The notes beneath the pieces are model-generated. The model saw only the letters and a list, made by a program, of their open reading frames with translations, did no database searches and had not been told where the DNA came from. A DNA stretch of 20,000 nt from Xylographa opegraphella (lineage: Eukaryota), in assembly GCA_022813865.1 (NCBI GenBank), contig JALDZX010000057.1, positions 109,240 to 129,239 of the forward strand, read 5' to 3'. Below are positions 10,087 to 11,870 of the stretch, piece by piece; position 1 is the first letter of the stretch; each line of letters starts with the position of its first letter. The position numbers and the translations under genes were made by a program.

Positions 10087-10257
10087 TGACAAATTTGTTA
10101 AGCAAGCTGCTCCAAACCTGTACATATTTGTCACAATAAATAGACTGGGCTAAATAGCTGAAGTCCAGAACCACATGTGGTTCCAGAGGGAGGATTGAGG
10201 GATTCGAACAGCGACACCTTAACTATCGCCCACGTCATTGACATTTTGAGTATAAAT
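10087..10257 (+). promoter_or_regulatory. GLR1 promoter: putative Yap1/AP-1 variant sites, CRE-like site and TATA box
   Basis: TGACAAA at 10087-10093 and its reverse complement TTTGTCA at 10127-10133 (T(T/G)ACAAA is a described Yap1 site variant); CACGTCA at 10231-10237; TATAAAT at 10251-10257. Confidence 0.45.
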
Positions 10258-10295
10258 TCTACACCGCATCGCCGCCATCTCCAAGAGTAGTCAAA

Positions 10296-10400
10296 GTGTC
10301 TTCCTTCAATATTCTTCGCTTGTTTGGCGCCGGTGCTCGTACCAAGGCCTCAGTAAGACTTGCAGCGGTCTCGAGACAATTCTCTTCTTCAAGCTCCGCA
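10296..10400 (+). other. In-frame, GUG-started, 35-aa mitochondrial-presequence-like N-terminal extension of glutathione reductase
   Basis: (V/M)[34 protein letters not shown] followed by MAPIH. It has 4 R and 1 K, no D/E, and an R-x-F-S cleavage-like motif. The GTG is in gtcaaaGTGt context. There is no ATG in any frame between the TATA box (10251) and 10401. Confidence 0.65.
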
Positions 10401-11870
10401 ATGGCACCCATACATAAGGAGTGCGACTACTTAGTCATTGGAGGCGGCAGTGGGGGTTTAGCATCCGCTCGTCGAGCAAGCGGCGTTTATGGGGCAAAGA
10501 CGATAGCTATAGAGAGTAACCGTCTTGGTGGCACCTGTGTCAACGTTGGGTATTATTCCCCAATCCCCTATACCCCGTACCCTCGCTGACACAAGGCCAG
10601 TTGTGTTCCCAAGAAAGTGACATGGAACGCTGCCGCTATAGCAGAAACCATTCATGCAGCAAAGTCATACGGCTTCTCGGTCGAGACTACCGCGCCCTTT
10701 GACTGGAAAGCCTTCAAGCACAAGCGAGATGCTTACGTGAAGCGATTGAATGGCATCTACGAGAGGAATCTCGATAAGGACCACGTTGAATACATCCACG
10801 GCCGAGCTCGTCTCACGTCTCCTGATTCCGTCGAAGTCAAGCTGGACGATGGCTCCACCACTACCGTCAAAGCCAAGAAGATCCTCCTAGCGACTGGCGG
10901 GCATCCTACCATCCCAGAGGGCATCCCCGGCTCTGAGATGGGAATCACCTCGGATGGCTTCTTCGACCTCGAAACGCAGCCCAAATGCGTCGCTCTCGTC
11001 GGCGCCGGCTACATTGCCGTCGAGATGGCCGGTATGTTCAACGCCCTCGGTAGCGAGACTCACCTCTTCATCCGCCACGAAACCTTCCTCCGCCAATTCG
11101 ACCCCATGATCCAGGAATCCATCACGAAAGAATACGAGCGCCTAGGCATCCACATCCACAAAAACTCCAACCAAACTAAGTTCGAGAAGAACACCGAAAA
11201 GGGCGGCGATTGGAAAACCCTTCACTACACCGACAAGGAGCATCCGGACGGCGCAACCCTTGACGTCGAGTGCCTTCTCTGGGGCATTGGCCGCTCGCCG
11301 GAAGTCGAGGACCTCGGCCTCCAAGCGGCAGGCGTCAAGCAAGGCAAGAAGGGCTATATCATGGCGGACGATTATCAGAACACCAACGTCGAAAATATCT
11401 ACTCCCTCGGCGATGTCTCCGGGAAAGTGGAGCTCACCCCGGTCGCCATCGCTGCGGGACGGAAGCTCGCCGATCGCCTGTTCGGGGGCCCCAAGTACAA
11501 GGACTCGAAGCTCGACTATACCAATATCCCCTCGGCGGTGTTCGCGCACCCGGAAGTGGGCACCATCGGGCTCAGCGAGCCGGAGGCGCGGGAAAAGTAC
11601 GGGGACAAGAACATCAAGGTGTATGAGAGTGACTTTACGGCAATGTACTACGCGATGATGGAGCCAGAGGAAAAGGCACCGACGAAGTATAAGCTGGTGT
11701 GCTACGGGGAGGAGGAGAAGATAGTGGGCATGCATATCCTGGGGGTGGGAAGCAGTGAGATATTGCAAGGGTTCGGGGTGGCGATCAAGATGGGTGCGAG
11801 GAAGAGCGATTTTGATAGCTGTGTCGCGATCCATCCGACAAGTGCCGAGGAACTGGTGACGATGAAATAG
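10401..11870 (+). CDS. GLR1: Glutathione-disulfide reductase, 472 aa from the AUG (507 aa if started at GUG 10296), 2 exons
   Basis: Exons 10401-10549 and 10601-11870 (51-bp intron GTATTA...GCTGAC...CAG). Motifs: FAD-binding [11 protein letters not shown], redox-active [13 protein letters not shown] (spans the intron), NADPH-binding [22 protein letters not shown], and C-terminal [10 protein letters not shown]. Confidence 0.97.

Follow-up and report, generated by a model that had tools for sequence, protein, structure and literature searches.

Our analysis suggests that one glutathione reductase gene of the lichen fungus Xylographa opegraphella probably supplies both mitochondria and cytosol, and that a conserved targeting peptide without an AUG most likely starts at a GUG codon at position 10296 of the window (the 20,000-nucleotide stretch of contig JALDZX010000057.1 that was analysed; all positions refer to it). 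We consider it likely that two forms of the enzyme are made from one mRNA by leaky scanning, a precursor from GUG 10296 and the cytosolic enzyme from AUG 10401. A minority of scanning ribosomes would start at the GUG in its strong C-4 A-3 A-2 context, giving a 507-aa precursor whose first 35 residues would form a basic, acid-free mitochondrial presequence, presumably cleaved at R-Q-F-S after import. Most ribosomes would pass the GUG and, with no AUG in any frame over the next 102 nt, begin at AUG 10401, which has a purine at -3 and G at +4; their product would be the 472-aa cytosolic enzyme. The same start would be a CUG in further lichen-forming fungi and in a second clade of ascomycetes, a UUG in one distant fungus, and an AUG in weak context in Leotiomycetes and another clade. 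Initiation at the GUG, import by the peptide and the setting of the ratio by leaky scanning, rather than by transcript start choice, are what we infer from the comparisons below, in which the upstream AUG is absent yet the presequence is conserved and under selection, so that the mitochondrial form would start at a near-cognate codon.

The gene (10296–11870, + strand) is identified by similarity as a glutathione reductase, a class I pyridine nucleotide-disulfide oxidoreductase. In a protein similarity search, exon 2 (422 aa) was 95% identical to the annotated glutathione reductase of Xylographa pallens (E 5.5e-275), and the proteins matching exon 2 carry PF07992 (Pyr_redox_2) and PF02852 (Pyr_redox_dim); the match of exon 1 to PF07992 was weak (E 1.6e-4, under the cut-off) because the exon 1 piece is short. 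The FAD-binding GGGSGG is encoded from 10440 onward in exon 1, GGTCVNVG closes this exon and CVPKK starts exon 2, and removal of the 51-nt intron joins them into C-V-N-V-G-C, a CxxxxC pair. We take GxGxxG and the redox-active CxxxxC to be the defining motifs of the glutathione reductase family. The spliced product from AUG 10401 is 472 aa long, the same length as ortholog P0001.

Table 1. Layout of the glutathione reductase gene and its 5′ region (feature; position in the window; strand; basis).
In-frame TGA ending the frame 5′ of the extension	10239–10241	+	read from sequence
TATAAAT, candidate TATA box, 45 nt 5′ of GTG	10251–10257	+	consensus match
Start context GTCAAA GTG TCT, proposed initiation site of the mitochondrial precursor	10290–10301	+	pattern common to 8/8 non-AUG loci
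35-codon N-terminal extension, proposed mitochondrial presequence	10296–10400	+	charge +5, 0 acidic, ATG-free in all frames
AGA CAA TTC TCT = R-Q-F-S, conserved cleavage-like motif	10374–10385	+	R[QH][FL] in 86/93 extensions
Annotated-type AUG, context GCA ATG G, start of the proposed 472-aa cytosolic isoform	10401–10403	+	ortholog P0001 begins here
Remainder of exon 1: GGGSGG and first Cys of the redox-active pair	10401–10549	+	sequence motifs
51-nt intron GTATTA...CTGAC...CAG, phase 2, within a Gly codon	10550–10600	+	spliced length fits
Exon 2, stop TGA 11868–11870	10601–11870	+	similarity to glutathione reductases

The first-pass annotation had proposed a GUG-initiated mitochondrial isoform, and its reading of the frame is borne out. 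The glutathione reductase frame is open from 10242, immediately after the TGA, its first in-frame ATG is that at 10401–10403, and a GTG stands at 10296–10298, 35 codons before this ATG. From 10178 to 10400 there is no ATG in any frame, the nearest upstream one lying 121 nt before the GTG, and the only in-frame near-cognate codons 5′ of ATG 10401 are GTG 10296 (the 5′-most), ATT 10311 and TTG 10320. The G at 10296, which the first-pass annotation wanted confirmed in reads, is found there too: a Logan contig of run X1 (depth 162) matches 9900–11200 with 0 differences, although X1 possibly holds the window's own source reads, so that this match argues only against an assembly slip. Runs X2 and X3 of the same study gave only short, diverged pieces on exons 1 and 2, and none on 10242–10400 at 80% likeness. 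We discarded the length of the open frame as weak evidence, since 241 of 1368 35-codon frames (18%) in the upstream intergenic DNA are stop-free and the +1 and +2 frames of the extension stretch are also often open; against this background, an excess over chance cannot be judged from the window alone. Comparative data across loci show that the extension does exceed chance.

These data come from a metagenome scan that kept 80 loci, 15 of which were fungal-like and looked at and 12 of which were distinct and informative. L005, identical to L004 across the region compared, was not counted separately, L049 was excluded as its match begins at residue 89 and includes no 5′ end, and L014, L015 and L017–L080 (at most 54% identity to the query) lay outside the comparison. 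L009 is unclear and was left out of the start-column counts, and neither L013 nor L016, with long branches or an extra intron, entered the statistics on codon positions and codon usage. The sample at the DNA level is small, at 13 distinct sequences.

Alignment of the 5′ regions of orthologs, a check named in the first-pass annotation, showed that the extension is conserved and that, equally far from the downstream AUG, the start column is occupied by ATG, CTG, GTG or TTG. Seven of the 12 metagenome loci have no in-frame ATG in the extension; in six of these the column holds CTG (L001, L002, L004, L010, L011, L012) and in L013 it holds TTG, the sole near-cognate codon in that open frame. The near-cognate codon lies 35 codons before the downstream MAP-ATG in the window, L001, L002, L004 and L012, five loci in all, and the ATG of L006, L007 and L008 occupies this same place; the ATG of L003 and the CTG of L010 both lie at -37 codons. 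L009 fits poorly: where the start would be expected it lacks a good near-cognate codon, and its ATGs are far off, at -89 and -70. ATG-started orthologs from Leotiomycetes (P0072, P0084, P0093, P0098, P0113) have extensions of 32–38 aa ending in ...RLxSLSRQFS...MAP that resemble the window's, and by this likeness the window's 35-codon extension is homologous to their presequences, so that its amino acids are conserved between a Lecanoromycete and Leotiomycetes. The extension is also conserved in amino acids in 93 of 120 exon-1 fragments from other fungi. A protein search with the extension only (residues 1–40, longer proteins, E up to 10) gave 110 candidates, none of which scored, because a 40-residue low-complexity query is too weak against 5.8 billion sequences.

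Non-AUG loci occupy no fewer than three separate regions of the glutathione reductase tree: one contains the window, Xylographa, Lambiella and Agyrium, a second groups L001, L002 and L004 with Flavoplaca and Psora, and the third is the starred clade L009–L012. We read the GUG as this lineage's version of a CUG start that is widespread among ascomycetes that form lichens and among some that do not.

Codon-position differences, taken as the mean pairwise nucleotide difference at positions 1/2/3 among seven non-AUG loci, were 0.43/0.22/0.65 over codons -17 to -4. Over codons -34 to -18, measured in the five loci whose start lies at -35 (window, L001, L002, L004, L012), they were 0.55/0.44/0.64, and in the 10 codons 5′ of the start context, where periodicity is absent, 0.78/0.70/0.70. 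Three-base coding periodicity thus starts at the near-cognate codon, with none upstream. The conserved Arg is encoded by AGA, AGG, CGA, CGC and CGG and the conserved Leu of R-L by five Leu codons, and identity at the third position of fourfold sites is 0.23–0.52 between loci, meaning that synonymous sites are saturated. Together, these comparisons indicate that in the AUG-less loci the extension is under protein-level purifying selection in the glutathione reductase frame, from the near-cognate codon onward. In the start column, Leu is encoded by CTG six times and by TTG once, at pooled Leu usages of 0.217 for CTG and 0.127 for TTG. As a control, columns of exon 2 were compared among these loci: of 12 with invariant Leu, one was all CTG/TTG, and of 25 L/V columns one was all CTG/TTG/GTG, which makes this empirical codon control for the start column only moderately strong.

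The extension had been described as a typical-looking presequence, a view with which its composition agrees: its 35 codons encode four R and one K and no D or E, for a net charge of +5, and its relatives are alike. All 13 loci have a net charge between +4 and +6, and 11 of them lack D/E. Among the 93 further extensions, R[QH][FL] occurs within the last 12 residues in 86, the last 30 residues are free of D/E in 80, and 91 have three to six R/K. The processing-like R-x-F/S motif noted at the end of the extension is the R-Q-F-S at 10374–10385, and it recurs in relatives as a conserved R-Q/H-F-S. We take it to be a putative MPP/Icp55 site, with Arg at -2/-3 of the presumed processing site; the cleavage motif is reportedly defined by Vögtle et al. 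(2009) as Arg at -2/-3, then F/Y/L, then S/A. For the window peptide, the highest hydrophobic moment over 11 residues was 0.73 against a shuffle mean of 0.56, a value reached by 8.5% of 2000 shuffles and hence not significant. Longer ORFs occur among the 93 extensions, 18 of them without Met in the zone and with K-L-S-type motifs there; P0194 alone has K-V-S, as the window does.

All eight non-AUG starts (the window and seven loci) have C-4 A-3 A-2 and TCT or TCG as the next codon, although A-3 also opens a conserved Lys/Asn codon, which makes conservation of the context inseparable from that of the residue. In Pezizomycotina, the most important context positions are A-3 and G+4, by the account in PMC5487733. 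Position +4 is T (U) in 8/8 non-AUG starts rather than the favoured G, a point against the proposed starts. Upstream ATGs have a pyrimidine at -3 in four of five loci (T or C in L003, L006, L007 and L008), and the MAP-ATGs of this group all have a purine at -3 and G at +4. The spacer between the two starts, 102 nt in the window (10299–10400), contains no ATG in any frame in 13/13 loci, where per-locus shuffles lacked one with a probability of 0.28–0.61. Leaky scanning requires such an AUG-free spacer. The leaky-scanning layout expected from the first-pass annotation is what the alignments suggest, with near-cognate codons in strong context, upstream AUGs in weak context and no AUG between the starts in 13/13 loci. 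A likeness drawn earlier between gtcaaaGTGt and the start of an AAA gene, ttcaaaATGg, is accurate: the latter is present once in the window, at 2986–2995, and starts an ORF located upstream of a Pfam AAA match (3874–4149).

The TATAAAT that had been offered in support of the GUG is indeed located 45 nt 5′ of it, but a TATA box there poses a problem instead of lending support. With the box so near, transcripts may have only a very short leader ahead of the GUG, or some of them may start downstream of it. TATA-like motifs also lie 32 nt upstream of the CTG in L001, L002 and L004 and 106 nt upstream in L010, and a regular-expression search found none in L011–L013. If transcription starts about 30 nt past the TATA box, the near-cognate codon would lie at the cap or a few nt from it, where poor initiation is expected, and the conserved CAAR could reflect an initiator element instead of a Kozak context. 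It is possible, if on balance rather unlikely, that the extension is translated and mitochondrial while the choice of transcript start, alone or together with leaky scanning, sets the ratio: starts upstream of the GUG would give the precursor, and starts at or after it only the cytosolic enzyme. The TATA-like box only 32–45 nt 5′ of the near-cognate codon in the window, L001, L002 and L004 is consistent with such a scheme, as are the pyrimidine-purine C-A step at -4/-3 in 8/8 non-AUG loci, which could be an initiator, and the human GSR isoforms, for which 5′ RACE suggests transcriptional regulation in the account of a preprint (PMC11974929). However, the TATA boxes are candidates from consensus matches, distant in L010 and missing from the search of L011–L013, and start-site choice has no need of a strong near-cognate context, a weak upstream-AUG context or an AUG-free spacer in 13/13 loci; these are features selected under leaky scanning, which argues against a scheme of alternative transcription starts only. 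A more speculative variant, which we regard as decidedly doubtful, is that the C-A-A-R / NUG / UCU block, 32 nt past the TATA (45 in the window), acts as a joint transcription-initiator and translation-start element. Transcripts would then begin a few nt from the near-cognate codon, and the mitochondrial share would be set by microheterogeneity of the start site together with cap-proximal non-AUG initiation, making a fungal non-AUG counterpart of the animal short-leader (TISU-like) elements in mitochondrial-protein genes; oxidative stress could retune this share.

Our preferred reading, initiation at GUG 10296, also has to be set against other readings of the extension. Initiation at ATT 10311 (A at -3) or TTG 10320 would be in frame and leave 27–30 residues with most of the basic ones, yet it appears improbable, as other loci have no conserved near-cognate codon there, in contrast to the -35 column in five loci, coding periodicity is already present in codons -34 to -18, and TTG 10320 has C at -3. 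That the extension is instead an untranslated leader in this lineage, conserved as promoter, initiator or mRNA sequence or left as a relic of a lost AUG, with no mitochondrial glutathione reductase from this gene, we judge very improbable. The missing AUG is in keeping with this idea, as are the annotated start at the 10401-type AUG in 49/55 models and a CAAR-NTG-TCT block that could be a core-promoter element; against it, AUG-less loci show three-base periodicity and keep Arg and Leu through synonymous changes, and charge, acid-free character and R-Q/H-F-S are kept across lineages with saturated synonymous sites. A relic would have decayed. An unrecognised upstream exon that gives the AUG and is spliced just upstream of or inside the extension is highly improbable, even though in-frame stops lie just 3–18 codons 5′ of the conserved start column and several loci have AG dinucleotides and pyrimidine-rich tracts near it. 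Our scan of the window found one GTRNGY donor (9301–10300), one YAG acceptor (10231–10345) and not one in-frame model of an ATG exon; relatives that do have the upstream ATG carry it within this same exon and equally far from the downstream start, and 0/55 gene models with an N-terminus among the best 120 matches show a different upstream exon. AAA, not AG, precedes the start codon in the window and in L011, and the first base of the codon is G, C or T, which rules out a conserved splice acceptor or donor at the start column.

The mitochondrial glutathione pool is kept reduced by glutathione reductase, and the upstream AUG is missing from the window's lichen fungus as well as from no fewer than two other groups of ascomycetes. 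Yeast Glr1 has a presequence of about 16 residues, whereas the one proposed here has about 35 and a conserved R-Q/H-F-S end. The near-cognate codons of mitochondrial isoforms in yeast are ACG for ALA1 and UUG for GRS1. A CUG start of mouse thioredoxin/glutathione reductase (TXNRD3) has reportedly been described by Gerashchenko et al. (2010); the likeness is that a CUG start yields an isoform of a related flavoprotein disulfide reductase, but this is a different enzyme, from an animal, and the title of that paper gives no tie to mitochondrial targeting. Our full-text search, with supplementary tables and a survey of conserved near-cognate extensions in Neurospora that Wei et al. (2013, J Biol Chem) are said to have made outside its scope, found no description of a fungal glutathione reductase with a non-AUG mitochondrial start.

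The two-AUG precedent of S. cerevisiae GLR1 invoked in the first-pass annotation is documented, with two in-frame AUGs for the mitochondrial and cytosolic forms: in the work of Outten and Culotta (2004), as summarised in PMC4851219, yeast GLR1 yields a long form with a signal that targets it to mitochondria and a short form that is cytosolic, mitochondrial glutathione reductase being made from the upstream AUG of the same gene. S. cerevisiae GLR1 and mammalian GSR resemble the gene described here in that one gene with two in-frame starts gives long mitochondrial and short cytosolic forms; they differ in having two AUGs, where the upstream start here is predicted to be GUG (CUG or UUG in relatives). 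Weak AUGs and near-cognate codons swap between lineages in fungal tRNA synthetases, according to the account in PMC7049704, and in ALA1, GRS1 and the 'DualNCC' tRNA synthetases covered there a cytosolic enzyme acquires a mitochondrial presequence by way of an in-frame near-cognate codon upstream, as we propose here for a redox enzyme. Glutathione reductase was not found named among the non-AUG dual-targeted genes in the literature examined. Yeast Gpx3, as described in PMC5368413, is likewise a thiol-redox enzyme that becomes mitochondrial through an upstream non-AUG-started extension; that extension has 18 residues, leads to the intermembrane space and has a start codon that is not conserved as a near-cognate one in strong context, whereas here a classical matrix-type candidate presequence is conserved across classes. 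The comparative evidence is of the same kind as for Pezizomycotina cpc-1, where, by the account in PMC5487733, near-cognate codons in near-optimal context (A-3) are conserved and the extension is under purifying selection, although the cpc-1 extensions span about 180 residues and bypass uORF control and are not targeting signals.

Non-AUG dual-targeted genes form a short list, made up mostly of tRNA synthetases, to which a central redox enzyme would be added. Weak AUG, CUG, GUG and UUG at one homologous position would make up a clean natural series in which to examine how the strength of a start codon is balanced against its context in setting a two-compartment ratio. Standard annotation does miss the proposed long form, as had been anticipated: among the 55 models with an N-terminus in the best 120 matches, 49 start at the downstream AUG, which would leave predicted proteomes of lichen fungi without a mitochondrial glutathione reductase and their localisation predictions wrong.

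The glutathione reductase (GR) gene, GLR, consists of two exons separated by a 51-nt intron, and its frame, closed on the 5' side by a TGA, is open through GTG 10296 and ATG 10401 to position 10549. Exon 2 shares 95% identity with the annotated enzyme of Xylographa pallens (P0001), and the spliced product from ATG 10401 has 472 residues, which is the length of P0001. A 34-row tree pairs the two with support of 100/99, with Lambiella and Agyrium adjoining; together, identity and tree position indicate that the source organism is a lichen-forming Lecanoromycete close to Xylographa. 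Pfam gave no match for the open reading frame directly 5' of GLR (8700–9505, plus strand) or for a large one at 1–2184 (minus strand).

Coordinates of GLR, its neighbours, and the TATA-to-start stretches of related loci (numbered within each locus)
Feature	Positions	Strand	Basis
AAA ATPase piece	3874–4149	+	Pfam
PPR-repeat protein	5095–6948	-	Pfam
Mitochondrial ribosomal protein S25/S23	7186–7551	+	Pfam
Glutathione reductase gene	10239–11870	+	ORF reading, homology
In-frame TGA closing GLR frame	10239–10241	+	sequence
TATAAAT	10251–10257	+	sequence
TATA-to-start stretch, window	10251–10298		motif match
Intron, 51 nt, GTATTA...CTGAC...CAG, interrupting a Gly codon	10550–10600	+	sequence
Exon 2 of GLR (stop at 11868–11870)	10601–11870	+	sequence
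SOG2 RAM-pathway protein	12564–14702	-	Pfam
SYF2 splicing factor	18228–18704	+	Pfam
TATA-to-start stretch, L001	2161–2195		motif match
TATA-to-start stretch, L002	1645–1679		motif match
TATA-to-start stretch, L004	2166–2200		motif match

As the first-pass annotation had claimed, no in-frame ATG occurs between the upstream stop and ATG 10401; the near-cognate codons of this frame are GTG 10296, which comes first, ATT 10311 and TTG 10320. The 35 codons from the GTG to the ATG (the extension) encode [35 protein letters not shown], with a net charge of +5 and no acidic residues, in keeping with the presequence-like character ascribed to this peptide; its hydrophobic moment is not significant. The TATAAAT noted upstream is present, and the context to which that of the GTG had been likened, ttcaaaATGg of the AAA gene, occurs once in the window, at 2986–2995, 5' of the Pfam AAA match. 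A Logan contig of sequencing run X1 (depth 162) matches the window over 9900–11200 with 0 differences, so the G at 10296 is borne out to the extent that an assembly slip is argued against, and solely that, as X1 may comprise the window's own source reads. Over 9900–11900, no RNA run was listed as containing this sequence. The length of the open frame alone is no argument for translation: of 35-codon frames in intergenic DNA, 18% lack a stop, and the other two frames of the extension stretch are often stop-free too.

Among the best 120 full-length-range protein matches, 65 begin within exon 2, as prokaryote-style gene calls, and 49 at the counterpart of ATG 10401 (MAP-ATG), the start of the cytosolic form. 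Five begin at an ATG 32–38 residues further upstream (P0072, Lachnellula; P0084, Botrytis; P0093, Phlyctema; P0098, Hymenoscyphus; P0113), and a sixth, P0053, has a two-residue insertion only. The ATG-started extensions end ...SRL-x-SLSRQFS...MAP, where the window reads ...[19 protein letters not shown]; judged by this comparison, the window extension is homologous to known ATG-started presequences. A search for short exon-1 pieces gave 501 matches, and 93 of the best 120 have an extension of at least 20 residues, with R-[QH]-[FL] inside the last 12 residues in 86 of the 93 and no D or E over the last 30 in 80. Among the fragments listed, 18 longer ones without Met in the zone carry K-L-S-type motifs at the expected distance, and one, P0194, has K-V-S, as in the window. 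Since a leading M in 'lgn' and 'ena' fragments may mask GTG or TTG, not every one of the 50 fragments starting with M at 28–42 residues can be taken as an ATG start. Of called starts among the protein fragments the commonest is M-Q; of internal motifs, K-L-S. Two gene models, P0022 (495 aa) and P0075 (486 aa), run through the exon 1/exon 2 intron and insert 15–24 unrelated residues past ...CVNVG; they look like annotation artefacts.

For the start codon itself, metagenome contigs were scanned using 18 aligned fungal GR sequences, and 80 loci were kept. We compared the 15 at fungal-level identity (L001–L013, L016, L049) and left out the remaining 65 (≤54% identity); L049 is without its 5' end and L005 equals L004 over the region, leaving 13 distinct loci, of which 12 are informative with L009 set aside. 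In seven of these the extension is free of in-frame ATGs, and a near-cognate codon stands where their conserved peptide begins (the start column): CTG in L001, L002, L004, L010, L011 and L012, TTG in L013. The other five have ATG at the extension start (L003, L006, L007, L008, L016). The start column lies 35 codons from the MAP-ATG in the window (GTG), in L001, L002, L004 and L012 (CTG) and in L006, L007 and L008 (ATG), 37 in L003 (ATG) and L010 (CTG), 46 in L011, 23 in L013 and 42 in L016. The TTG of L013 is the sole near-cognate codon of its entire open frame, and L012 has an in-frame stop three codons 5' of its CTG. Alignment of orthologous 5' regions, the check proposed for the GUG reading, thus finds the extension kept, with ATG, CTG, GTG or TTG in its start column. 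In the tree, non-AUG starts are spread over the window's group, the grouping of L001, L002 and L004 with Flavoplaca and Psora, a distinct L009–L012 clade with good support, and long-branch L013; ATG starts fall in a Leotiomycete group (L003 and named proteins), in clade L006–L008 and in long-branch L016.

The extension carries a coding signature. Third-position identity at fourfold sites is 0.23–0.52 between loci, implying that synonymous sites are saturated. Across seven non-AUG loci (window, L001, L002, L004, L010, L011, L012), mean pairwise differences at codon positions 1/2/3 are 0.17/0.17/0.66 in the exon-1 core, 0.43/0.22/0.65 in codons −17 to −4 of the extension and 0.78/0.70/0.70 in the ten codons 5' of the start context; for codons −34 to −18 (window, L001, L002, L004, L012) they are 0.55/0.44/0.64. 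The differences inside versus upstream of the extension place the onset of the coding signature at the near-cognate codon. In the conserved R-L pair, Arg is spelled AGA, AGG, CGA, CGC or CGG, and Leu by five Leu codons; in the start column, Leu is CTG in six loci and TTG in one, the window having GTG. Pooled Leu usage in these genes is 0.217 for CTG and 0.127 for TTG, but the empirical codon control makes a weaker case than these frequencies multiplied together would: in exon 2, 1/12 invariant-Leu and 1/25 all-L/V columns likewise consist of near-cognate codons alone. The one invariant Leu column of exon 2 that is all TTG/CTG in the same seven loci, despite saturated synonymous sites and a favoured Leu codon of CTC (0.48), was taken as a control match.

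All eight non-AUG starts are preceded by C-A-A-N, and their +4 position is U, at odds with the preferred context; in L003, L006, L007 and L008 the −3 base of the upstream ATG is T or C. The MAP-ATG is flanked by a purine at −3 and by G at +4 in all loci bar long-branch L013 and L016, and L008 (A at −3). In Pezizomycotina the context positions said to matter most are −3, as A, and +4, as G (PMC5487733). The order is therefore a weak AUG or well-placed near-cognate codon, then a strong AUG. No ATG in any frame separates the two starts in 13/13 loci (probability of an ATG-less spacer in composition-matched shuffles, 0.28–0.61 per locus), and in the window the ATG-free stretch spans 10178–10400, so a ribosome passing the first start would reach the strong AUG unhindered. 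The second codon, at 10299–10301 in the window, follows start type, TCT or TCG (Ser) after 8/8 near-cognates and CAA (Gln) after the ATGs of L003, L006, L007 and L008; this pattern may stem from how the N-terminus is processed or from a context needed by non-AUG starts.

We consider the likeliest mechanism, and on this comparative evidence a probable one, to be that a mitochondrial GR precursor would be initiated at GUG 10296, while ribosomes leaking past it would start at AUG 10401, as the first-pass annotation had proposed. An upstream spliced exon supplying the start of the extension is unlikely: a scan of the window for canonical donor and acceptor sites and for exons with an in-frame ATG returned 0 models, and ATG-type relatives have their ATG within the same exon at equal distance. 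We keep alive a reading in which the isoform ratio is set by the choice of transcript start or by initiation close to the cap, given that a TATA-like motif lies 45 nt 5' of the GTG in the window and exactly 32 nt 5' of the CTG in L001, L002 and L004. Working TATA boxes usually have a short spacing to the transcript start; if these are functional with that spacing, transcription would set in at the near-cognate codon or just ahead of it, and the conserved C-A step of the CAAR block might also serve as an initiator. A regular-expression search found no TATA-like motif within 200 nt in ATG-type loci; by eye, TATA-like strings are seen ~70–85 nt upstream in these.

Initiation at GUG with leaky scanning would set GLR apart from yeast Glr1, where two in-frame AUGs serve mitochondria and cytosol (PMC4851219), and from the mammalian enzyme, of which the same is said (PMC4851219; PMC11974929). 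Near-cognate starts are established for mitochondrial isoforms of yeast tRNA synthetases and Gpx3 (PMC5368413), exchanges of weak AUGs with near-cognate codons are on record for fungal tRNA synthetases (PMC7049704), and conserved near-cognate extensions are documented for cpc-1 of Pezizomycotina (PMC5487733). A full-text literature search (Wei et al. 2013 and supplements outside its scope) found no description of a fungal glutathione reductase with a non-AUG start, and terms for isoforms and start codons gave no hits in a review of the fungal glutathione system (PMC9500636). The new aspect, as read from sequence, would be non-AUG dual targeting in a gene elsewhere dual-targeted via two AUGs, with a practical consequence for how the proteomes of lichen fungi and other ascomycetes are annotated.

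L009 (positions 1–480) fits poorly: at the distance where a near-cognate codon would be expected it has none that is well placed, and its ATGs lie at −89 and −70 codons. This locus, sister to CTG-type L010, is intronless and has a frame open up to the contig end, and its two ATGs open basic, presequence-like stretches; its extension may be much longer and ATG-started. The clade of L009, L010 and L011 is without the intron in the Gly codon between ...CVNVG and CVPKK, which is kept in all other loci compared, distant L013 and L016 included.
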